A DNA stretch of 33,221 nt from Chrysochromulina tobinii. Its lineage: Eukaryota. The position numbers and the translations under genes are program-made. Where the stretch lies: positions 1-33,221 of the forward strand of contig JWZX01002530.1 of the NCBI GenBank assembly GCA_001275005.1, given 5' to 3'. Under the pieces are notes generated by a model that saw only the letters and a program-made list of their open reading frames with translations, made no database searches and had not been told where the DNA came from. This document shows positions 14,266 to 33,221 of this stretch, piece by piece (position 1 is the first letter of the stretch; each line of letters opens with the position of its first letter).

Positions 14266-16701
14266 ATGCGCGACGACCCTCGCGGCGCTCGCTTCGTCGG
14301 CCTGGGCCTGACCGAGCTTCCGCGATCTACCTTCGAGGCACCGATCACATCTCTACAATTGGCTGGCAATGCGTTTCAGGTCCTGCCGCCGCAGCTTGCG
14401 GCGTGTCCAAGCCTTACCGATCTCGGCTTGGACTCCAACGAGCTGCGTGGTCTGCACCCGGAGACGCTGTCTTGCCTGTCTTCGCTGCGAGCGCTGTCGC
14501 TCACCGGCAATCAGCTCACCGAGGTGCCTCCGGAGATTGGCAAGCTCGGGGCACTCGCGCTCGGCGGAAACGAGATTTCCGAGCTGCCACGTGAAATAGG
14601 CAACTGCTCCTCGCTGCGCACGCTGACGTTGTCGGAGAACGCGCTCACGGCGCTGCCTAGTGAGCTGGGCCGGCTCCAGATGTTGCGCACGCTGCGCCTG
14701 GACGGCAACCCGTCGCTCACGTGCCTGCCCGACTCGCTCTGTGACCTTCGAGCCCTCGAGGCCCTCTCCGTATGTGCATGTGGGCTGCGCGATCTGCCGG
14801 GCAGATTGGGAGAGATGAGCGCGCTCTCGACGCTCTTGGCGAATGATGACCGCCTCGAGGGCCTGCCGACCAGCATAGGTGGTCTGCAGCGCCTCCGCAC
14901 TCTCGGCCTCTCTGGCAACCGGCTCCGCACGCTGCCAACCGCTCTCGGCGCGTGCGCCGCGCTACGCACGCTCTCCCTCAGTGCGAATCGTTTGAAGGAG
15001 CTGCCGGCGGAACTGCGCGGGCTCTACAGGCTTGAAGAGCTGCTTCTTGACGACAACCCTTTGGACGCCTTGCCAGCCGAGCTGCCGCCGGCGCTGCGCG
15101 TGCTAGGCGTGAGCGTGTGCACGGGCGTCCGTGTGCTGCCAGTGTCTCTCGGAAGCCTTTCGCAGCTGACCCAACTGGCGATAGGAGCGGCTCGGTTGGA
15201 GGCTCTGCCTGCGTCCACGACCCTGCTCGTTCGTCTCCAGACCCTCATCCTGAGCGGCAACCTCCTCCGTACGCTCCCGCCGAACCTCGGCGCCCTCGCG
15301 TCCCTCGCGACCCTCGATGTGTCCGATAACCGGCTCGAGAAGCTGCCAGAGTCGATTTGTTCCTTGGGCGTGCTCACGACGCTTCGGGCGGCGGAGAATG
15401 GCCTCGAGGCACTCCCGGAGCTCGTGGGCGATCTCAGGTCACTGCAGGTGCTCAGCATCGCCGCCAACCGACTCCGACGCCTCCCCGACTCGATCGGCAA
15501 CCTCACGTCGCTGCAGTTCCTCGATGTGTCTTCGAACCGGCTCGAGGAGCTGCCGGCGACGATGGGGAGCCGTTGGAGCGAGCTTCGTCAACTCTTCCTC
15601 GATGACAATGAGCTCTCTTCGCTCCCTGCCTCGCTCGGCGAGCTGCGTGCGTGTGAGGAGCTCGGCCTCGCCGTCAATTCCCTAACGGAACTGCCAACGT
15701 GGCTGCTCGAGGGCTCGCTGACGAAACTCCGAACGCTGCGGCTGCACTCCAACCTGCTGCCGCATCCGCCAGCGCCACAGGATTGGAGTGCGCTGTCCAT
15801 CGCCGCCAATCGCCTCACGCTCTTTGACAACCCGCGGTGTGCGACACTTCCGAGACACTTCCGAGACACTTCCGAGACACTTCCGTGCGGCCATCAGGCC
15901 GTGGGAGGAATTGGCATGCCGCTGCCACCTCGTGCGGAGAAGAGCAGCCACTTCCGAGACACTTCCGAGACACTTCCGAGACACTTCCGTGCGGAGAAGA
16001 GCAGCCCACGGGTATGCCCAACGCAACGCCCAAGTATCGCCCTTCTCCTGCCCGGCCTTCTACGCAACTATGCTCACGGCGCGCACTGGAGACGCTTCGT
16101 CAGCGCGCTCTCCGCCGCGTACGAGGTGCAGGTCTACATGTGCCTCTGGGCCATCCGAGGCTCGCCAGCCAACCACTTTGCCCAGAGCGCCGACAAGGAG
16201 CACGCGGCGAGGGTGGACCTTGCGGCTCTCGCGGCGGCCTACCCGTCCGCAGCCGCCGTGGAGCTCGTGGAGCTCGAGCATTGGATCGACCGGGACCGCG
16301 AGGGCCACGACGGGCGGTTCGCCAACCAATGGGCGATGGTCGCGCGCTGCTGGGCGCTGATGGAGCGCTCGGTACAGCGCTCGATCGAGCCCGCTGCGTG
16401 CCCAACGTATGTCATCCGAGCTCGGCCAGATTTGCGAGTGGCATGCCTACCGCTGCCACTCGAGCAGCCGTCACCGTACCTCGCCATCCAGGAGCGCCTG
16501 TGGGGCAGCGACTGCTTCTTCTACGGCGACTACGAGAGCATGCGCACCATCTGCACGGAGCTTGCCCCGCACTACGACGAGTACACCCACGCGCTCGGCC
16601 ATGCGTCGAGCGAACCGATGCTCCAACACCACATCGACCGACACGGTCTCGCGGAGCGCATGCTACGGTTCGCCAGGTGCGTCAGCATCGACCGGACGTA
16701 A
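14266..16701 (+). CDS. Leucine-rich repeat protein with C-terminal glycosyltransferase-like domain; probable in-frame intron 15837-16004
   Basis: Roughly 20 LxxLxLxxNxLxxLP repeats (~14300-15830). C-terminal domain IALLLPGLLRNY...QWAMVARCW...YVIRARPDL...SDCFFYG...SEPML. A 168-nt GT...AG segment contains the intervening repeats. Confidence 0.85.
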   Translation: MRDDPRGARFVGLGLTELPRSTFEAPITSLQLAGNAFQVLPPQLAACPSLTDLGLDSNELRGLHPETLSCLSSLRALSLTGNQLTEVPPEIGKLGALALGGNEISELPREIGNCSSLRTLTLSENALTALPSELGRLQMLRTLRLDGNPSLTCLPDSLCDLRALEALSVCACGLRDLPGRLGEMSALSTLLANDDRLEGLPTSIGGLQRLRTLGLSGNRLRTLPTALGACAALRTLSLSANRLKELPAELRGLYRLEELLLDDNPLDALPAELPPALRVLGVSVCTGVRVLPVSLGSLSQLTQLAIGAARLEALPASTTLLVRLQTLILSGNLLRTLPPNLGALASLATLDVSDNRLEKLPESICSLGVLTTLRAAENGLEALPELVGDLRSLQVLSIAANRLRRLPDSIGNLTSLQFLDVSSNRLEELPATMGSRWSELRQLFLDDNELSSLPASLGELRACEELGLAVNSLTELPTWLLEGSLTKLRTLRLHSNLLPHPPAPQDWSALSIAANRLTLFDNPRCATLPRHFRDTSETLPCGHQAVGGIGMPLPPRAEKSSHFRDTSETLPRHFRAEKSSPRVCPTQRPSIALLLPGLLRNYAHGAHWRRFVSALSAAYEVQVYMCLWAIRGSPANHFAQSADKEHAARVDLAALAAAYPSAAAVELVELEHWIDRDREGHDGRFANQWAMVARCWALMERSVQRSIEPAACPTYVIRARPDLRVACLPLPLEQPSPYLAIQERLWGSDCFFYGDYESMRTICTELAPHYDEYTHALGHASSEPMLQHHIDRHGLAERMLRFARCVSIDRT
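15842..15990 (+). repeat. 11-bp tandem repeat (GACACTTCCGA)n in two blocks, probably intronic
   Basis: About 4 units at 15842-15885 and about 4 at 15949-15989. The second block is flanked by the direct repeat CGTGCGGAGAAGAGCAGCC (15931 and 15988). Confidence 0.9.
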
Positions 16702-20296: not shown

Positions 20297-20524
20297 TCGA
20301 AAAAGCGCCACGCCGGGCGCTTTTCGGGCCGCAACAGGGCCCCCGACTGTGTCGGCAGTGTGCCGGGCTGCGGACTAGCGGCTACCGGGACAGATTTCTG
20401 TTCTTCACCGCTGAGTTGATTCGTGAGTTCATCTTTCGTCAATGATCGTCAGTCTCAGAGGACGCGTGCTCGAAACCATTCTCGGAATTATCCTAAAAGA
20501 ACGTCCGTCTTTATCGAGAGGCGA

Positions 20525-21663
20525 GCTCGAATCCAATCGCGGAACATCTGAACACAATCGCAGCTTCGCGCACTCATTCGCACGGCAAGCCAACATGCTC
20601 TCCTGCGTCCTCGCCGCCTCCCCCGCTCTGATGCTCGGCCCGGTGGCCGCGCCAGCCCTGCGCCACGCATCACCCACGATGCAGCAGACCTTCCAACGCG
20701 AGCAGGTCGGCTACGGGACCGCGACCTACACCGGCGGCGTCGTGCCCACGCGCATGGCGCCCGTCAAGGCCGACTCCACCATCCTCGTGCAGGGTGGCTC
20801 GCTGCGCACGTGGTCATACCGCTCGCCGTCCGTGGAGCAGGTGCAGGTCGTCCTCAGCACCGAGGGCCGCCCGCTCGACGCCGACATCGAGCTCTGGCAC
20901 GGCCCCGACAACACGCCCTGCAAGATGCGCGTGTACGTCGAGAACGGCCAGCTCCGCCCCTTCTCGGCGGTGATCGAGACGCCGCGCGGCCCGAACACCG
21001 TGGCCATCCGCAACATCGGCCAGATCGAGTTCCCCATCGCCGCCAACGTCGTCGCTGACCAGGTCGACAGCCCGTCCGCCGACTGCATTGCCGCATCGAC
21101 GACCATCCAGGGTGGCGCCCTGCGCACGTATCCCTTCGACCCGACCGTCGACAGCGTCCAGGTGCTGCTCAAGACCGACGGCCGCCCGCTCAACGCGCGC
21201 ATCGAGCTCCTCCAGGGCCCGAACAACAACAAGCAGGTCATCGAGCTCTACACTGAGGACGGCCTCGACCGGCCATTCTTCGCCATCCTCGAGACCCCGG
21301 GCTCGGGCAACGTCGTCCGCATCGTCAACACCGCGCCGATCGAGTTCCCCATGACCGCCGGCGTTGTACCGCACTCGATCAATACGGACATGTCCGCGGC
21401 CGACGTCGTCATCGGCGGCGACATTGGCCGCTAATGTGCAGGCCGCACGGCCGCGCCGCGCACAAGGATTGAGTCCCACACGCGCGCGCGACGATACCTT
21501 CAGATGTCTGGGCTGGCGGCCACGATCGGGATGGGGCGCGCACGCCGCGAAAGAGCATGAAGAGAGTTGCGAGCCGTGCTTCGCGGAGGAGGAGGAGGCC
21601 CGGGAGGAGAGGCCGGGCGTTCATCGTAGGAGCTGAGAGAGATGAGTCGGTCGTGCCCGTCCG
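20525..21663 (+). repeat. Left arm of a ~1.1-kb inverted duplication (gene plus UTRs)
   Basis: Aligns by eye to the reverse complement of 24980-26076, from the 5' flank GCTCGAAT(C/A)CAATCG...CACAATCGCAGCTTCGC to the 3' flank GTCGTGCCCGTCCG. Confidence 0.92.
20595..21434 (+). CDS. Uncharacterised algal protein, 279 aa, two internal repeats (QGGxLRT...GRPLxAxIELxxGPxN...ETP), probable plastid presequence; copy 1
   Basis: Strong GC3 codon bias; hydrophobic N-terminus then Ala/Pro/Arg/Ser segment ending ASPTM; two clearly homologous halves of about 100 aa. Confidence 0.9.
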   Translation: MLSCVLAASPALMLGPVAAPALRHASPTMQQTFQREQVGYGTATYTGGVVPTRMAPVKADSTILVQGGSLRTWSYRSPSVEQVQVVLSTEGRPLDADIELWHGPDNTPCKMRVYVENGQLRPFSAVIETPRGPNTVAIRNIGQIEFPIAANVVADQVDSPSADCIAASTTIQGGALRTYPFDPTVDSVQVLLKTDGRPLNARIELLQGPNNNKQVIELYTEDGLDRPFFAILETPGSGNVVRIVNTAPIEFPMTAGVVPHSINTDMSAADVVIGGDIGR

Positions 21664-22720: not shown

Positions 22721-24382
22721 TTAGCGGGCCCAGCTCGGCGCGTCGAGATTCGCGAGCCACGCGGCCTTGGCGCTCTCAGCACCCGCGACCGGCGCGCTGT
22801 TCGGCATGAAGGCTGGCGCATAATTGGACGGGAGGCTTCGGGTAGGCACGACACGGCCGGCCGGGGCCGGCGCGTTGCTCGACCCCCATGCTGGCGCGTC
22901 GAGCTTCGCAAGCCACGCGGCTTTGGCGGCAGCCTCGTTCGTCGAGGCGCAAGCGGGCACGGCGTACGCGGGAGCGAGCGCAACCGGCGCGGGCGCCGAG
23001 GCATGCATAGCACCGAAGAACGCGTCGCGCTCTGCAAGCCATGCGGCCTTGGCAAACGCCTCAGCCGTGGTGGCGGCAGCGAGGTCCAGTTTGGCGAGCC
23101 AGGCGGCCTTAGCAGCAGCCTCACGCGTGGCAGCGGTGTCAACGGGCGCGGCATTGTATGAGAACGTGGCATCGCTGACGGGCTCAGAGTAGAGTGCGGT
23201 GGGGGTTACACGACCCTGGCCCCAGGCAGGCGTGTCGAGCTTGGCAAGCCATGCGGCCTTGGCGGCAGCCTCGCCAGCAGCGCCAGTGGTGGCGGCAGCG
23301 CGGCCCCAGGCGGGCGTGTCGAGCTTGGCGAGCCAGTCGGCCTTGGCGGCAGCCTCGCTAGTTGCGGCGGCAGCGGCGTCGATCGTGGGGGTGGCAGCGC
23401 CTGACTCGGTGACGAACGCAACGGTCTTCGGGCCCCAGGTGGGCGCATCGAGCTTGGCAAGCCATGCGGCCTTGGCGGCAGCCTCGCCAGCAGCGCCAGT
23501 GGTGGCGGCAGCGCGGCCCCAGACAGGCGTGTCGAGCTTGGCGAGCCAGGCGGCCTTGGCGGCAGCCTCGCTAGTTGCGGCGGCGGTGGCGTCGATCGTG
23601 GGCGTGGCAGCGGCCGACTCAGTGATGAACGCAACGGTCTTCGGGCCCCAGGTGGGCGCATCGAGCTTGGCAAGCCATGCGGCCTTGGCGGCAGCCTCGT
23701 TCGTGGGGGTGTGGGCGGCAGCGCGGCCCCAGACAGGCGTGTCGAGCTTGGCGAGCCAGGCGGCCTTGGCGGCAGCCTCGCTCGATGCAGCCGGTCCAGC
23801 GTAGGCGGGGGCAGCCTCAACTAGAGCAGGCGCCGAGGCACCCCTGCCCCAGGCAGGCCCATCGAGCTTTGCGAGCCAGGCGGCCTTGGCGGTTGCCTCG
23901 TTCGTGGCGGCGGCAGCGCGGCCCCAGACAGGCGTGTCGAGCTTGGCGAGCCACGCGGCCTTGGCGGCGTCTTCGCTGGGAGCAGCAGCAATCGTAGCAG
24001 CCGCCGGGGCAGGGTTCATGAAGCCGGCCTTGGTGCCCCAGCTTGGCATATCGAGCTTTGAGAGCCAGGCAGCTTTGGCGCCCACGGTGTTCATGACTAT
24101 GTCGGGCGAAGACGCCTTGCCAACAATAGTGCCCGTTATGTAGGCGGACTGCAGAACATTGGGAAGGCGGCAGCAGAGAACGTGAGTCATGGATGGCAGT
24201 CGATGACCACTCTTTGAACCGTGCCGCGCGCGTGGTGTGCAGGGCGAGATCAAGGAAAGTGTCGGCCGTCAAATCCAGCACAGTGGTGCACGAGGCAGGG
24301 TGAGGTGGGGCTGCGGGAGGGCGAGCGGTCGCGCGCGTACCGAGAGCGCGACCGTCGAAGAGCAGACGAGGAGGTGAAGCAT
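22721..24382 (-). CDS. Ala-rich repeat protein with 13 AKAAWLAKLD(xPxWG) motifs and bipartite plastid-targeting-like presequence; exons 24382-24341 and 24148-22721 (489 aa)
   Basis: Phase-0 intron GTACGC...TTCTGCAG (24340-24149) joins MLHLLVCSSTVALS to SAYITGTIVGKASSPDIVM. Motif copies counted in the translation; a 213-bp (71 aa) two-motif higher-order repeat lies at about 23230-23780. Confidence 0.88.
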
Positions 24383-24979: not shown

Positions 24980-26076
24980 CGGACGGGCACGACGACTGAT
25001 CTCTCTCAGCTCCTTTGATGAACGCCCGGCCTCCTCCTCCTCCGCGGAGCACGGCTTTCACTTCTCTTTAGGCTCTTTCTCGTCGCGCGCGCCCCATCCC
25101 GATCGCGGCCGCCAGCCCAGACCTCTGAAGGAACTTGTCGCGTGTGCGGTGTGGGACACAATCCTTGTGCGCGGCCTGCACATTAGCGGCCAATGTCGCC
25201 GCCGATGACGACGTCGTCCGCGGACATGTCCGTGTTGATCGAGTGCGGGACAACGCCGGCGGTCATGGGGAACTCGATCGGCGCGGTGTTGACGATGCGG
25301 ACAACGTTGCCCGAGCCCGGGGTCTCGAGGATGGCGAAGAATGGCCGGTCGAGGCCGTCCTCTGTGTAGAGCTCGATGACCTGCTTGTTGTTGTTCGGGC
25401 CCTGGAGGAGCTCGATGCGCGCGTTGAGCGGGCGGCCGTCGGTCTTGAGCAGCACCTGCACGCTGTCGACGGTCGGGTCGAAGGGATACGTGCGCAGGGC
25501 GCCACCCTGGATGGTCGTCGAGGCGGCAATGCAGTCGGCGGACGGGCTGTCGACCTGGTCGGCGACGACGTTGGCGGCGATGGGGAACTCGATCTGACCG
25601 ATGTTGCGGATGGCCACGGTGTTCGGGCCGCGCGGCGTCTCGATCACCGCCGAGAAGGGGCGGAGCTGGCCGTTCTCGACGTACACGCGCATCTTGCAGG
25701 GCGTGTTGTCGGGGCCGTGCCAAAGCTCGATGTCGGCGTCGAGAGGGCGGCCCTCGGTGCTGAGGACGACCTGCACCTGCTCCACGGACGGCGAGCGGTA
25801 CGACCACGTGCGCAGCGAGCCACCCTGCACGAGGATGGTCGAGTCGGCCTTGACGGGCGCCTTGCGCGTGGGCACGACGCCGCCGGTGTAGGTCGCGGTG
25901 CCGTAGCCGACCTGCTCGCGCTGGAAGGTCTGCTGCATCACGGGCGATGCGTGGCGAAGGGCTGACGCGGCCACCGGGCCGAGCATAAGAGCGGGGGAGG
26001 CAGCGAGGACGCAGGAGAGCATGCTGCTGAGGCGAAGCTGCGATTGTGGTGCGATGTTCCACGATTGTATTCGAGC
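24980..26076 (-). repeat. Right arm of the ~1.1-kb inverted duplication
   Basis: Reverse-complement match to 20525-21663; CDS nearly identical, UTRs with more substitutions and indels. Confidence 0.92.
25183..26022 (-). CDS. Uncharacterised algal protein, 279 aa; copy 2 (inverted paralog of 20595-21434)
   Basis: Same length (840 nt); only 4 amino-acid differences seen (P/S and T/V in the presequence, M/K, A/D). Confidence 0.9.
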   Translation of the reverse strand: MLSCVLAASPALMLGPVAASALRHASPVMQQTFQREQVGYGTATYTGGVVPTRKAPVKADSTILVQGGSLRTWSYRSPSVEQVQVVLSTEGRPLDADIELWHGPDNTPCKMRVYVENGQLRPFSAVIETPRGPNTVAIRNIGQIEFPIAANVVADQVDSPSADCIAASTTIQGGALRTYPFDPTVDSVQVLLKTDGRPLNARIELLQGPNNNKQVIELYTEDGLDRPFFAILETPGSGNVVRIVNTAPIEFPMTAGVVPHSINTDMSADDVVIGGDIGR

Positions 26077-26706
26077 ACACATCTCCCGCTTCTCCGACTC
26101 TCTTTTTCGACGTGAGATTTTCGTCGAAAATTGAAAATCCGGTGTCGCCTAAAAACAAGCGGATGTGTTACCTGCTGACAAGCCTCTCCTTTACTGTACA
26201 AAACGTGATCGCCGTGAAGTTTTTTTGTTGGTGCAACGTGCATGTATCGGTATGGGCCCGGACACCCGATACAGCATCGAGCATGTACACGCGGCTTTCC
26301 GCCCCACGCACCCCCGTGAGCTTCTTCAGGGAAATAGGCCAATACGGCTGATATCTTATTTTGATTCGAATATAACTTTGATGGCCCGTCACGCACACCG
26401 CGCCCGAGAAGCAATCGACCTACCGCTAGCGCTACCCGCTGAGAACGGCCGCTCTGGTCTGGTGTCTGGTGAACTGTCCGCCGTCTCTCCCGCCCACAGC
26501 GCACACAGGAGCGGAAATACGACGGGACGTCCAAATGTTCTCCACACGAATGGGTGAGTGACACACCCCCAGCATGCATGCATGCGACGAGAGGGCAGAC
26601 GCATAAGCATGCCATGTGCCCATCTCCACATCTTCGTGCAACTGCGCGCGCACTGCCTCTGCGCACTGCCACTGCGTGCGCCATCCTCAACATCTGGACG
26701 CCTCTC

Positions 26707-28512
26707 TCAATCTTTGCCCCGGAGGCGCTTCCACAACCCTCGTTTCTTCTTCGTCTCTGTCGCCACTATGATCGCCGCCTTTGGCGCCGCCTCCGGCAGC
26801 GCCATCAACCGATCACTCTTGGCGAGAACCTTCTCCGCTCGCTCAATGACCGACCTCTCGTCTACCGAGAGCCCAGTCGCTTGTGCAAACTCGCTCGACG
26901 TCCATTGAGCTGGGCTCCATTTGACAGGCTCTGGCTTCGGCACAGGCTCTGGCTTCTCGTCCACTGCCAATCCCGGCGCGGCATCAAACTCCTTCTTCGC
27001 CCATGGCGCTTTGAACGGCTCTGGCTTCGGCGCACGCGTTACCTTCTCGTCCACTGCCAATCCCGGCGCGGCATCAAACTCCTTCTTCGCCCATGGCGCT
27101 TTGTAAGTCGCCTTGACGATCGGCTTAGCCGCTGGTACGTCCACTGGCTTGGCAGGCTTCGCCTTTCCTGTCGTGGGTGCCGTCACGGGCGCCGGGGCTG
27201 CCGAGGATGCCTCCGTCTCGTTGCCACCGAGCAGCACAACCGCCGCGCCAAGGGCGACTACAGATGGGATTGGGTTGAAACCGCCGCCACGTTTTTTCTC
27301 AGCGGTGGCCTTCGCCTTGGGTGCAGCCTTGGCCGGAGGGGCCTTCGCGGCGAGCCTCTTCGCTTTGATCGCGGCGGCCTTCTCCGCCTCCCGCTCCGCC
27401 TGCGCCGCCGCGCGCGCCGTCCGCTCTGCCTGCAGCTCCGCCACCCGAACTTTGTTGCGCTCCCGTGCGGCTTGGGCTTCATCGATCTTATTGCGAGCCG
27501 CTGCCAAAGGCTGCGCCGCCTTGGTCGCCTTCGGCGCTGCCGCCGCCTTTGGCGCCGCCGCCGCCTTCGGTGCCGCCGCCGCCTTTGGCGCCGCCGCCGC
27601 CTTTGGCGCTGCCGCCGCCTTTGGCGCCGCCGCCGCCTTTGGCGCCGCCGCCGCCTTTGGCGCCGCCGCCGCCTTTGGCACCGCCGCCGCCTTTGGCGCC
27701 GCCGCCGCCTTTGGCGCTGCCGCCGCCTTTGGCGCTGCCGCCGCCTTCGGCGCCGCCGCCGCCTTCGGCGCTGCCGCCGCCTTCGGTGCCGCCGCCGCCT
27801 TCGGCGCCGCCGCCGCCTTTGGCACCGCCTTCGGCGCTGCCGCCGCCTTCAACGCTTTACGGCGCGCCTCGGCCTCAAGCTTCGCTTGCTTCGCTTGCTT
27901 CGCGGCCGCCTCGCCCAGGGCCCTCTTATTGGCAGCCGCCGCATTGGCCGCTCTGGCCGCCTCATTCTCCATCGCCAACTTAGCGGCCTTGGCTGCCTCA
28001 CGCTGTGCGTCGGCTGCCCGCTTGTTCGCCAGCGCCTCGGCCTTTTGGCGCGCCGCCGTCACCTTCACCAAATCTCGTTGCGCCGTCGCACGTACCTTAG
28101 CTTCACGTTGCGCCGCCAATTCCTTCGCCTTCGCTTCCACCTTGGCCAACGCCTCCGCCTTGGCGATGGCCTGGGCCTCAGCCTTGGCGGCCTTGGCCTT
28201 GGCCTGGGCCTCGGCCTTGGCGGCGATTGCCTCGGCCTTGGCTTCCGCTTCAATTGCCTGTAACCTCGCTGTAACGGCACGTTCTTTCTCTTCTGCGAGC
28301 GCCAAGCGCTCCTTTGCACTCAACTCCGGAGACGAGATGGCAAGCAAGGTCACGGCCGGCAACTGCGGTAGTGGTGTCGCCGCGATCGCTGCCTGCTGAA
28401 CCACAGGGAACGGAGCCGTCGAAAGGAGCCCCGCGATAACGATTGAGCACAGCGAAGCGGAAGCGCGTGCGCCAGCGTCATTCCCTCTGAATGGTCTGAG
28501 CGGTGCCCTCAT
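26707..28512 (-). CDS. Ala/Lys-rich protein: hydrophobic targeting segment, coiled coil, (KAAAAP)n, single TM helix, repeated C-terminal motifs
   Basis: 601-aa ORF. LCSIVIAGLLSTAP...AAIAA (AxA-type) near the N-terminus; TM-like IPSVVALGAAVVLLGG; KAPWAKKEFDAAPGLAVDEK twice plus a variant KWSPAQWTSSEFAQATGLSVDE. Confidence 0.8.
   Translation of the reverse strand: MRAPLRPFRGNDAGARASASLCSIVIAGLLSTAPFPVVQQAAIAATPLPQLPAVTLLAISSPELSAKERLALAEEKERAVTARLQAIEAEAKAEAIAAKAEAQAKAKAAKAEAQAIAKAEALAKVEAKAKELAAQREAKVRATAQRDLVKVTAARQKAEALANKRAADAQREAAKAAKLAMENEAARAANAAAANKRALGEAAAKQAKQAKLEAEARRKALKAAAAPKAVPKAAAAPKAAAAPKAAAAPKAAAAPKAAAAPKAAAAPKAAAAPKAAAVPKAAAAPKAAAAPKAAAAPKAAAAPKAAAAPKAAAAPKAAAAPKAAAAPKATKAAQPLAAARNKIDEAQAARERNKVRVAELQAERTARAAAQAEREAEKAAAIKAKRLAAKAPPAKAAPKAKATAEKKRGGGFNPIPSVVALGAAVVLLGGNETEASSAAPAPVTAPTTGKAKPAKPVDVPAAKPIVKATYKAPWAKKEFDAAPGLAVDEKVTRAPKPEPFKAPWAKKEFDAAPGLAVDEKPEPVPKPEPVKWSPAQWTSSEFAQATGLSVDERSVIERAEKVLAKSDRLMALPEAAPKAAIIVATETKKKRGLWKRLRGKD
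27529..27850 (-). repeat. 18-bp coding minisatellite encoding about 18 KAAAAP units
   Basis: Period-18 repeat (plus strand CGCCGCCGCCTTTGGCGC-type) with synonymous variation between units. Confidence 0.95.
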
Positions 28513-29944: not shown

Positions 29945-32900
29945 ATGCTGCTGCTCTTGCCCTCTTTGGCGAGTATTACGTTCAACATCGGTGCCACGCA
30001 TCGACCATCGGCGTTGCCGCGTGTGGGTCCGCCTGTGCGACTCAGCGTCACGGCCGCGACACCGCTCGGTGAGGGCGAATGGGAGGTCATCAAGGAGGGT
30101 GGAGCTTTCTATGGCCGCGCGTCGCAGTCAAAGCTGCGTGTCAACGTGGCTGGCAAGGAGATGACATTCGGCACAGGCTTGATCGCACGCCAGGCCAATG
30201 CAGCCGTCACCGTCGAGCAGGGCCAAACGCACGTCTTCTCGGCCGCGTGCTTCGAGCGCAAGACGGACTTTGAGGCGATCGACTTCACGCCGCTCAAGGT
30301 GGACTACTTTGAGCGGCAGTCTGCGGCGGGACGGACGCTCGGTGGGTATATCAAGCGTGATGGCAAGCCGTCCAACCACGAGACGCTCACTTCACGCCTG
30401 ATCGACCGACCAATCCGTCCGCTCATCGCCAAGGGCTGGTCGCTCGAGACGCAGCTGACAGCGTACGTCCTCGCGTATGATGGCACGCACATGCCCGACG
30501 TGCTCGCGATCCTGGCGTCCTCGGCGGCGCTCGCTCTCTCCGAAGTCCCCTTCCCCAAACCAGTCGCTGCCGTACGCGTCGGCCTCATCGAAGAGCGCCG
30601 TCCTGAGCGCCCGGCCCCAGCGGCGGCGACGGACGACGCGGTGAGCGACGGCGCGGCGAGCGACGACGCCGGCGCCGGCGTCGTCGCCGGTGCCGCCGAG
30701 GAGGATGACTTTCTGGACGAGCTGATCCTCGACGAGCAGGTGACCGAGATCTCCGAGATCTCCGAGATCTCCGTCATCAGCTCTGATTGCCTCCCTCATC
30801 AGCTCTGATTGCCTCCCTCATCAGCTCTGATTGCCTCCCTCATCAACGCAGGTGACCTCCGAGACCTTCGAGGAGGCGACCGACGACAGCAGCGGCGGGG
30901 GCGGCAGCAGCAGCGCTCAAGACGGCGCCCAAGCGTCGTACCGGTTGGTAATCAACCCGACGCGCGAGGAGATGGCGATCTCGAAGCTCAATCTCGTGAT
31001 CGCGGGCACCTCCGACGCGGTGCTGATGGTCGAGGGCTTCTGCGACTTTTTGCCCGAGGAGACGGTCCTCGAGGCGATGGAGCTTGGCCTCAAAAGCGTA
31101 CGCACCCTCGCGCCCTGCCCAGCCGCGCGTCGCATGCAAGTGCTCACTACGGCGCCACGTCTCTTCCCCACAGGTACGCACTCTCGCATTGGCCATCGGC
31201 GAGTGGGCGGCCGCGTGCGGCTCGCCCAAGTTCGAAGCCGGCGTGCGCGCCGAGCCAGAGGGGCTCGATGCCATGGTAGAGGCGATCATCGGCGACGAGA
31301 TCGAGGGCACGCTATGCGGCCCTACCAAGGTACGTTGATGGCCACTGATGACCTGGGTTGCATGCAAGCGCTCACCACAGCGCGCTCTGCGCCCCTAATT
31401 AGGACGACCGCGAGAATTGGGAAGGGCTCTGTAATCGGGCGGTCGAGGCTCTGTGCTCCGATGCGGCGGTGGCGTCGCGCGGCGGCCTCGTCTTCGAGAA
31501 GATCGATGTCAAGTCGTCGTTCAAGCGGCTCGCGTACGCGAGGCGCCCGGGATGACGAATGATTGCGAGTGATTGCGAATGATTGCGAATAATTGCGACT
31601 GATTGCGTACGCGAGGCGCCCGGATAACGACTGATTGCGAATGATGGCCTCGGATTGCCGCTGATGATGGCCTCGGATTGCCGCTGATGATGGCCTCGGA
31701 TTGCGGCTGATGATGGCCTCGGATTGCGGCTGATGATGGCATCGGATGGGCTTCCTCTTCAGGTGTGCTGGCATCTGATGACCTTTGGATGACCTTTGAT
31801 GAGCTCTGATTGCCTCCCTCATCAGGTGTGAGACGCTACGTCGCATGGGCGTGCGCGGCGTGCGCCAGGACGGACGACGGACGACCGAGGTGCGACCACT
31901 GATGACGACCACTGATTACCACTGATTACCTCTGATTACCACTGATTGCTACGACCGAGGTCGATCGAGGTACGACCGAGATCGACGTCCGAGATCGACG
32001 TCCAGAGCGCGCAGCATGCAAGTGCTCACCACGGCGCCGGTCCTTTCCACAGGTACGCCCGATCGACATTCGGCTGGCGCCGCTGCCGCCACAAGTTCAT
32101 GGCTCCGTCCTGTTCACACGTGGCGAGACGCAGTCGCTCGCAACGACGGTCCTCGGCGATGACTCGATGGTGTCGCGGTACGCTGATTGCCACTGATTAG
32201 CTACTGATGGCGTCTGATGACCTATGATGGCCTCTGACGACGCCCGATGACGCCCGATGACGCCCAATGACCTTCCTCATCAGGTACGAGAACCTCGATG
32301 GCGAGCAGGGGAAGCGCTTCTACCTGCAGTACATCTTCCCGCCCTTTTCGGTGGGCGAGGTGGGGCGCAACGGCGCGCCGGGACGACGCGAGGTCGGCCA
32401 CGGCAACCTTGCCGAGCAGGCGAGCTGATGACCTCTGATTGGCCATGATGACCACTGATTGCCTATGAGTGGCCCTGATGGGAAGTTATGGCGAGCTAAC
32501 GCGTCGTCGTGGGCATGCTACCTTTTCCGAGCAGGCCCTCGCGCCCGCGATGACCAATGATGACCCCTGATGAGCACTGATTGCCCCCCTCATCAGGCCC
32601 TCGCGCCCGCGATGCCAACCTCGAGTGAGTTCCCTGATGACCTCTGATGAGCACTGATTGCCCCCCTCATCAGGCCCTCGCGCCCGCGATGCCAACCTCG
32701 AGTGAGTTCCCGTACGTGGTGCGCGTCGAGAGCCTGATCACCGAGTCGTGTGGCTCGTCCTCCATGGCGTCCGTCTGTGGCGGCGCGCTCTCCATGATGG
32801 CGGCAGGCGTCCCGCTCAAGCGCGTCGTCGCCGGAGTTGCGATGGGGCTGCTCCTCGACGAGAGTGGGGGCGGGGGAGAGCCGATCATCCTCACAGGCGA

Positions 32901-33221
32901 GCTGATGACCTCTGATTGCCCATGATGACCACTGATTGCACCCCGATGGGCGCCAAGGGAGAGCCGATCATCCTCACAGGTTCGTTGATTGCCACTGATG
33001 ACCTGCCTTGCATGCAAGCGCTCACCACAGCGCTATCGGCTCGACCGACCCGATCATCCCCACAGATATCCTCGGCTCTGAAGATGCACTGGGCACGATG
33101 GATTTCAAGGTGCGCTGCCGACGCCTCACCACACCCCCACTCCCCCCGACGCGTCACCACACCCCACTCCCCCCGACGCGTCACCCGTAGTCGTCACCCG
33201 TAGTCTTCACCCGTAGTCTTC
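29945..33221 (+). CDS. pnp: Polyribonucleotide nucleotidyltransferase (PNPase), probably plastid; partial. Exons 29945-30739, 30852-31097, 31174-31329, 31403-31533, 31826-31889, 32053-32177, 32284-32419, 32674-32896, 33066-33109
   Basis: The spliced frame gives [55 protein letters not shown]...[27 protein letters not shown]...[24 protein letters not shown] and [17 protein letters not shown]. All intron phases are consistent. Confidence 0.95.
30740..33221 (+). other. Set of repeat-rich spliceosomal introns in PNPase: 30740-30851, 31098-31173, 31330-31402, 31534-31825, 31890-32052, 32178-32283, 32420-32673 (GC-AG), 32897-33065 (GC-AG), and one starting at 33110
   Basis: Boundaries inferred from continuity of conserved PNPase sequence. 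Shared modules CTGATTGCC(T/C)CCCTCATCAG, CTGATGACC and GCATGCAAG(T/C)GCTCAC recur between introns. Confidence 0.85.
31641..31750 (+). repeat. 23-bp intronic minisatellite (TGATGATGGCCTCGGATTGC(C/G)GC)n
   Basis: About 4-5 tandem units in PNPase intron 4, preceded by 10-bp TGATTGCGA(A/G/C) repeats at about 31560-31606. Confidence 0.9.

Follow-up and report, generated by a model that had tools for sequence, protein, structure and literature searches.

Introns of the PNPase gene of Chrysochromulina tobinii, and of unrelated genes in this alga, probably arose as a short branch-point-bearing piece that is common to other introns, flanked by a 10- to 47-nt duplication of the target exon. An existing intron, often a neighbor, likely served as the template from which the piece was copied at the DNA level, and later rounds likely stacked into copies of exon-exon junctions. 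The pattern is real and lineage-wide. Its novelty is the presence of long, variable duplications in introner-like introns.

The origin of new spliceosomal introns is a long-standing open question. To our knowledge, most gained introns have no traceable source.

The PNPase gene and its introns

The window is the whole stretch of DNA that was analyzed, 33,221 nt. It contains the first nine exons of a PNPase gene, whose introns are of two main types. In type A, the intron start is a copy of the start of the next exon. In type B, the intron end is a copy of the end of the previous exon. The features are as follows.

29945..33109, + strand: PNPase gene, exons 1 to 9; the gene continues beyond the window end
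30740..30851, + strand: intron 1; repeats like the exon-2 start, followed by three acceptor-like units of 22 nt
31098..31173, + strand: intron 2, type A; copy of the exon-3 start, now decayed (31098-31111), with a core at 31132 and an acceptor tail
31330..31402, + strand: intron 3, type B; donor-bearing arm and core, with a degenerate exon-3-end copy (31380-31397) at the end
31534..31825, + strand: intron 4, compound; donor-region repeat inside near 31607, internal AG/GT at 31762/31763
31890..32052, + strand: intron 5; junction-like copy (31956-31986), core at 32014
32178..32283, + strand: intron 6; motif array, exon copy not significant
32420..32673, + strand: intron 7, three layers; arm and old exon-7-end copy (32502-32534), exon-8-start copy (32535-32552) with acceptor 32596, 77-nt expansion (32597-32673)
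32417..32462 and 32894-32939, + strand: 5' arm common to introns 7 and 8 (46 nt, 98%)
32897..33065, + strand: intron 8, two layers; intron-7-like arm and exon-8-end copy (32957-32979), then an older type-B intron from GT 32980 with a degenerate copy (33047-33065)
33110..33221, + strand: putative start of intron 9, truncated by the window end; GT donor behind an exon colinear with homologs

Removal of introns 1 to 8 gives a 640-aa frame without stops. The RNase_PH domain (PF01138) was matched in exon 1. The set of PNPase domains is found in full-length homologs, which are colinear over junctions 2 to 8, and a homolog labelled Tisochrysis lutea has a 57% match to the gene product, which is likely plastid-targeted. 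An 855-aa homolog is uninterrupted on a 15.9-kb contig (P0147), which suggests that the PNPase introns are lineage-specific.

The RNA evidence consists of assembled contigs from all six RNA samples that match the region. Among the joints and pieces listed from these contigs, introns 2 to 8 are each skipped exactly at the outermost splice sites. The skip lengths are 76 nt (intron 2), 73 (intron 3), 292 (intron 4), 163 (intron 5), 106 (intron 6), and 169 (intron 8). Intron 7 is spliced out in RNA contigs of X12 and X16 (32416 joined to 32671), and the intron 8 skip was retrieved from samples X11, X12, and X14. Intron 1 has no spliced joint among the RNA joints listed, and the X11 to X13 contigs start inside it at 30816. 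It is called as an intron by the HMM described below. One X15 contig starts at 30848 and another has 30 unplaced letters past 30735, which fits intron-1 splicing indirectly. The first-pass annotation had proposed alternative use of the internal sites at 32596 and 32980. This was not borne out: their use results in premature stops, and the listed RNA joints are at the outer sites only.

For each intron, we aligned its own junction locally and took about 2,900 windows of coding sequence as controls. Exon copies were beyond chance in introns 5 (p 0.0004), 7 (p 0.0004), and 8 (p 0.0003). They were weaker in introns 1 (p 0.007), 2 (p 0.027), and 3 (p 0.008). The intron-3 copy is an addition to the first-pass annotation. 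Introns 4 (p 0.63) and 6 (p 0.60) had no exon copy that was significant against their control windows. Of the earlier claim that introns 1, 2, and 6 begin like the downstream exon, the intron-6 part does not stand, as the likeness there is that of the common donor consensus only.

Introns 1 and 2 can be followed into close relatives. Intron 1 is missing from 13 of 15 read-through proteins and is present with another repeat number in the other 2. Within intron 2, a copy of the exon-3 start of about 19 codons is found in 13 of the 15, and the short copy in the window is therefore likely a decayed long copy.

Intron 7 contains an exon-8-start copy that matches at 18 of 18 letters. It also contains most of a 77-nt tandem repeat (32558-32634 and 32635-32711, 99%). 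The degenerate exon-7-end half is weak when unanchored (24/332 controls reach it). Anchored to the adjacent copy, it matches at 19 of 33 letters, which no control reaches (0/332). Intron 8 contains a perfect exon-8-end copy (23/23) with a GT at 32980. Its acceptor is a degenerate copy (17/19) with a score reached by 0/332 control exon ends. The 5' arms of the two introns are each other's nearest relatives, scoring 75 vs a best of 57 among 332 other introns. The junction copy and the second acceptor 77 nt upstream in intron 7 had been noticed at first pass, with the right coordinates, as had the exon-8-end repeat, GT donor, and acceptor near-copy in intron 8 and the junction-like copy in intron 5. 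All of them were confirmed.

The first-pass annotation had named mis-assembly as a hazard to its reading. The repeat junction at 32634/32635 is spanned by a contig in 2 of the 10 DNA samples examined, with depths of 34 and 26. In these two samples, the doubled part has depths of 75 and 55, and single-copy contigs have depths of 31 to 46. Positions 32682-33006 form one DNA contig that contains the whole exon-8-end duplication, and an unspliced RNA contig is identical to the window over 32283-32613. All of these contigs were built from short reads, and the window itself may derive from the DNA runs. The duplications are present in the DNA contigs and are therefore not mis-assemblies. The probability that the pattern as a whole is an assembly artefact or chance is close to nil. 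The assemblies are short-read and repeat-rich, but independent contigs and depths agree, the copies hold substitutions with codon bias, and the pattern recurs in many samples and in the read-through proteins of relatives.

Exon copies in the motif-selected loci

A genome-wide test was replaced by 135 loci selected with a 24-nt core motif. They contained 558 kb (462 kb nonredundant), and at least 141 stretches matched. We retrieved 209 unique core sites from these loci, and the sequence recurs in introns of genes that are unrelated. A core stands alone at 128 sites, and its left and right flanks match in 88 of these, vs 13/2542 shuffled pairs. Random points in the same loci gave repeats at 130/1266 with the same threshold. 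Type A was found at 69 of 105 anchored sites vs 5/1037 controls. The type-A copies span a continuous range of 10 to 47 nt, 65 of the 69 begin with GT or GC, and the frame is restored in 46 of 52 well-called cases. Type B was found in 8/332 introns at the threshold and in 12 at a lower one, vs 1/3313.

Intron boundaries outside the PNPase gene are predictions of an HMM trained on the motif loci. It recovered 8 of 8 window introns and 67 of 69 acceptors, and both ends agreed in 41 of 69. Of 479 predicted introns, 147 were dropped (no motif, short flanks, longer than 600 nt, or duplicate) and 332 were retained. Fifteen donors were shifted to the copy start before counting, in own junctions only. 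Any copy of a flanking exon was found in 212/332 of these motif-bearing introns vs 6/1327 foreign junctions, and 120/332 had no copy detected. A copy stands at the intron start in 99/332 (15 of them after the donor shift) vs 1/1327 and at the intron end in 8/332 vs 0/1327. Internal copies of exon starts (80/332) and exon ends (74/332) compare with 2/1327 foreign junctions each. At least two exon-start copies were present in 34/332 introns. Junction copies were found in 36/332 introns vs 1/1327 foreign junctions. The excess over chance on which the first-pass annotation rested its genome-wide check was found in the 135 loci.

Both motif families behave alike, with copies in 117/165 core introns and 79/133 CTGAT-array introns. 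The simplest architecture is seen in 64 type-A introns with one copy and one core and a donor-to-core distance of 23 to 55 nt. About 30 to 50% of a simple intron is locus-specific, and the shortest one seen has 64 nt. Mismatches in the copies are at 8.1% at third codon positions vs 4.3 to 4.6%, and 35 of 99 copies are perfect. These values indicate that the copies were exact at birth and then aged. Error-prone copying at birth was considered and rejected on the same grounds.

Orientation is nearly uniform. Neighboring motif pairs less than 1 kb apart have the same orientation in 668/676 cases, a model-free count. Motif matches fall in sense introns in 130/137, 118/119, and 299/307 cases, counts that are partly circular because the HMM was trained on motifs. 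All 23 motif matches in the window fall inside the PNPase gene. One duplication-flanked core, at locus L016, is antisense and has no splice sites.

The left edge of the core is sharp. Conservation is about 90% to position -10 and then drops to background, and a palindromic hexamer stands there. Only 7 of 89 non-seed cores are without this edge. Function would account for a sharp left edge, but the end of a defined element would do so equally well, a point against the copying model. Terminal inverted repeats (TIRs) gave no signal in the predicted introns (5/332 vs 25/1660 controls). No poly(A) tail was seen in the core sites inspected, no terminal direct repeat was noticed in them, and a scan of viral contigs for the acceptor motif gave 0 matches. 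Acceptor copies hold few changes on which purine-to-pyrimidine drift could be gauged. In the comparison of internal-AG decay, non-AG ends likewise have excess end mismatches.

Alleles, local parents, and layered introns

One pair of loci holds an empty and a filled allele. Over 1045 aligned nt, L106 and L011 have 16 mismatches, and L106 contains 81 additional bases, namely a perfect duplication of 33 nt and a piece of 48 nt. With its flanking overlap, the piece has 1/53 mismatch to the intron that follows in that gene, 524 nt downstream. It has 0 differences from the L011 allele of that downstream intron. The next best match, from another locus, has 2 mismatches. This is the only empty/filled DNA pair and is not polarized, as exact loss between the repeats gives an identical picture. 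The reading of the first-pass annotation, that introns are born from repeated insertions with a long and variable target duplication, is supported by this pair and by hundreds of predicted introns.

By its sequence, the inserted piece is a fragment of another intron, often of the same gene. The best match of a piece lies within the same locus 24.6 times vs 4.5 expected (n = 275). In three loci (L057, L019, and L051), the intron holds sequence from the exon flank of another intron, 1.2 to 2.5 kb away. Local matches of the left arm number 6/116, all from three loci. A general test of neighbor-flank carry-over was null (8/1482 vs 22/3909). Microhomologies of 2 to 5 nt were seen in few cases, and none was locus-specific left of the donor. 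Local likeness may also come from later gene conversion, which speaks against the copying model.

Some introns have expanded. L030 and L060 are polymorphic by one 94-nt unit, made of an exon-start copy and a piece. This unit and the 77-nt unit of intron 7 are the same kind of event.

Every junction copy (36/36) has an AG before or a GT/GC after its boundary, and 37/332 real junctions have neither. The intron start is already an exon-start copy in 25 of the 36 junction-copy introns. Two stacked DNA-level events therefore suffice. A spliced-mRNA template for the junction copies is not needed and was rejected. A stepwise origin through spliceable intermediates has modest support. From the divergence of its copies, intron 7 would have begun as a type-B intron with the exon-7-end copy as its acceptor. 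That copy has since decayed. A type-A event would then have brought in a new acceptor along with the perfect 18-nt copy of exon 8, and the expansion would have come last. Intron 8, dated in the same way, would be an old type-B intron from 32980, later fronted by the intron-7-like arm and the perfect 23-nt duplication.

The sequence pattern of recursive splicing (zero-length exon), an internal AG and GT/GC with two intron-sized halves, was found in 51/332 introns. It is present in window introns 4, 7, and 8. Recursive use is thus possible.

Origin of the introns and relation to known systems

In the copying model, a nick, break, or stalled fork would be where DNA synthesis jumps to a nearby intron at a microhomology of 2 to 5 nt. 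Synthesis would copy roughly 45 to 60 nt of the donor intron and then re-prime 10 to 47 nt back on the target. In type A, the copy of the next-exon start gives the GT/GC, and the piece gives the branch point and AG. In type B, the piece gives the GT, and the copy of the previous-exon end gives the AG. In exons, only products that restore the frame would survive. Repeat events would be nearly neutral within an existing short intron. Extra units, or exact intron removal, would result from unequal exchange between the duplicates. Since no simple intron seen is as short as the piece by itself, a long duplication may also be selected. The data show the product, local parents in a few cases, and the polymorphism; which enzyme acts, what molecule is the template, and which way the polymorphism runs are inferred.

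The main rival is a non-autonomous transposon that hops locally and is mobilized in trans by an enzyme with variable-length duplications (a Replitron-like HUH transposase or a non-LTR reverse transcriptase). Selection would retain only spliceable sense insertions. We regard it as unlikely. It is nevertheless a serious rival, as shown by Replitron-1 with its variable duplications and fuzzy end. Replitron-1 (PMC10288648) inserts after RG; one of its ends is fixed, the other is fuzzy and copied from the flank of the parent, and its duplications vary. One Replitron protein is reported from C. tobinii. Type B fits this outline, carried-over flanks were seen in the surveyed loci, and the core has its sharp left edge with a palindromic hexamer. 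Non-LTR elements also leave variable duplications (PMC9977147, as far as the text was available). However, the pieces have about 50 nt, and which end is fixed depends on the splice site supplied. At least two unrelated motif families behave alike, sense orientation is near-total even within introns, and the core sites inspected had no visible poly(A) tail. In the available Replitron text, Replitron-1 insertions are scarcer than expected in coding sequence and introns.

An RNA template in cis is distinctly improbable. Here the gene's own unspliced transcript or excised intron would guide repair or reverse transcription at an R-loop, and in the strongest form junction copies would come from spliced mRNA. 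It would account for the sense-only, gene-restricted, clustered pattern with same-gene bias, including the confinement of the window motifs to one gene, and an R-loop model has been published for Micromonas introners (PMC4540971). In the available part of that paper, however, the R-loop model gives clean intron insertion without duplication, whereas the pieces here are partial and come with duplications. Junction copies with neither AG nor GT/GC number 0/36 vs 37/332 real junctions. The halves of the intron 7 copy are of unequal age (19/33 vs 18/18), and the antisense core in L016 is flanked by a duplication. Plain tandem duplication of exons or exon-intron borders (the Rogers model and amphioxus mirages), with common motifs added later by gene conversion, is highly improbable as a full account. 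The 77-nt and 94-nt expansions are mirage-like (PMC3087553, available part), and 25/36 junction copies could be donor-region duplications. But in the L106 insertion a perfect duplication is accompanied by a foreign piece that is complete, and 64 simple type-A introns have one copy and one core. A bare 10- to 47-nt duplication would also be too short and lack a branch point. Pure tandem duplication explains the expansions only. Templated copying is the reading that we retain as the likely one.

The following comparisons hold for the available parts of the papers cited. Published introner duplications are 3 to 9 bp, and the target-site duplication supplies one of the splice sites (Gozashti et al. 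2022, PMC9860276). Marine Chrysochromulina MAGs contain introners, one family of which has a 4-bp duplication and no TIR (PMC9860276, PMC12130899, and PMC11282704). The present introns are like introners in having a repeated intronic element, with one splice site carried and the other from the duplication, and both polarities have been described. They are unlike them in that duplications are 10 to 47 nt and variable rather than 3 to 9 bp and that pieces are partial, locally sourced, and stacked. In the broad sense they are introners, with sequence repeated in introns of unrelated genes, precise splicing, and presence/absence polymorphism (direction not polarized). They fall outside the operational definition of Gozashti et al., as likeness at both ends fails and the donor-to-core distance varies (23 to 55 nt). 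They also differ from MITE/TIR DNA-transposon introners, as there is no TIR signal and the duplication is not of short or fixed length. The 2022 screen requires likeness at both intron ends within 15 bases. It would likely miss the present introns because one of their ends is a locus-specific exon copy. Within the part of the 2022 dataset examined, C. tobinii appears only in the input table.

Other systems share parts of the pattern. In Daphnia pulex, introns are gained at staggered double-strand breaks with repeats of 4 to 12 bp (Li et al. 2014, PMC4202315; review, PMC3443670). The direct repeat of the adjacent exon at the far intron end, the repeated bouts that lengthen young introns, and the population polymorphism are alike. 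No common element family is described there, whereas the present insert can be recognized as part of other introns and comes with a repeat several times as long. Rogers tandem duplications and amphioxus mirages (PMC3443670 and PMC3087553) likewise have duplicated exon-intron borders with spare AG/GT, vary in length, and leave normal splicing undisturbed. In contrast, each of the present duplications has a foreign branch-point piece inside it and makes the intron in the first place; tandem, length-variable border duplication is seen in the 77-nt and 94-nt units, as an expansion and second step only. Replitron-1 of Chlamydomonas (Craig 2023, PMC10288648) resembles the present introns in its copy-and-paste mode, variable duplication, and one fuzzy end from the parent's flank, the latter two of which were found here. 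The present pieces differ in having about 50 nt vs 0.9 to 3.6 kb, in lacking a transposase, and in being confined to sense introns. Non-LTR retroposition (TPRT) does not match, as no tail was seen, the left edge is sharp, and type B has the opposite end fixed. Work on fungal stwintrons (PMC8469720) deals with MMEJ deletion rather than with intron gain. We found no description of long variable duplications in haptophyte introns in literature that left most subscription papers outside the search, and supplements of introner surveys may bear on the novelty.

A broader reading is possible and is offered tentatively, as we put it at somewhat below even. Introns may beget introns without a transposon. 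Repair or replication machinery would copy the branch-point piece of a neighboring intron into the same gene, and the long duplication would add the missing splice site and length. The process would be autocatalytic and would explain intron-packed genes beside intronless ones. It would leave a readable record of parent and age. It would be the main intron source in the lineage, invisible to existing introner screens.

Each intron carries a dated duplication, a same-gene parent is often traceable, and variants segregate in natural populations. Mechanism, rate, direction, and splice-site selection are therefore directly testable in a culturable alga. The findings suggest that introner surveys undercount a class of introns with locus-specific ends. 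They also suggest that in-frame exon copies and spare splice sites mislead gene prediction in such genomes. If the copying model is true, this alga has a self-spreading route of intron making that current screens would likely miss.

Intron motifs and splice sites of the PNPase gene

The PNPase gene contains all of the intron-motif matches of the window (23 of 23). Positions 1 to 29900 hold many long ORFs, and no match to any of the three intron motifs was found there. Genes packed with introns adjoin intronless genes in the window.

Intron 1 of the PNPase gene (30740-30851) has a weak functional acceptor, with three strong spare acceptors upstream of it. Its 3' end is read through by RNA contigs from three runs, which hints at retention or mis-splicing. 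The donors of introns 7 and 8 are GC. Across the 135 loci that share the 24-nt core motif, 42 of the 332 introns predicted by HMM have a predicted GC donor.

Repeats and paired genes elsewhere in the window

The following features were identified.

15834-16005, within a long leucine-rich ORF, a pair of arrays of an 11-nt unit, both in frame
20442-21431 and 25186-26082, two near-identical genes that form an inverted pair (identical at 812 of the 836 bases aligned)
22724-24190, minus strand, a gene of repeated short peptide units, enclosed by the inverted pair
26710-28512, minus strand, an ORF of 601 aa in which an alanine-rich six-residue repeat forms a long array

A direct repeat, about six codons long, lies on either side of the second 11-nt-unit array, which is possibly an unspliced duplication-insertion. 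The 11-nt unit was not found in the 135 core-motif loci.

Duplications around cores and within introns at other loci

The core motif is flanked by a 19-nt duplication at L016 +7036, and usable splice sites are absent. This core lies on the opposite strand to a nearby intron, and 11 nt of the left arm are common to both. It is a possible non-intronic, inverted copy. The cores at L111 -300 and L096 +300 also have a flanking duplication. Both inserts are a multiple of three in length and lie in open frames. They may be unspliced or may use a non-canonical donor.

Three predicted introns (L053 -240, L056 +1999, and L011 -8529) each contain three to five stacked units, each unit consisting of an exon-start copy and an acceptor. 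These arrays resemble the mirages of amphioxus, which are tandem, length-variable duplications of an intron-exon border.
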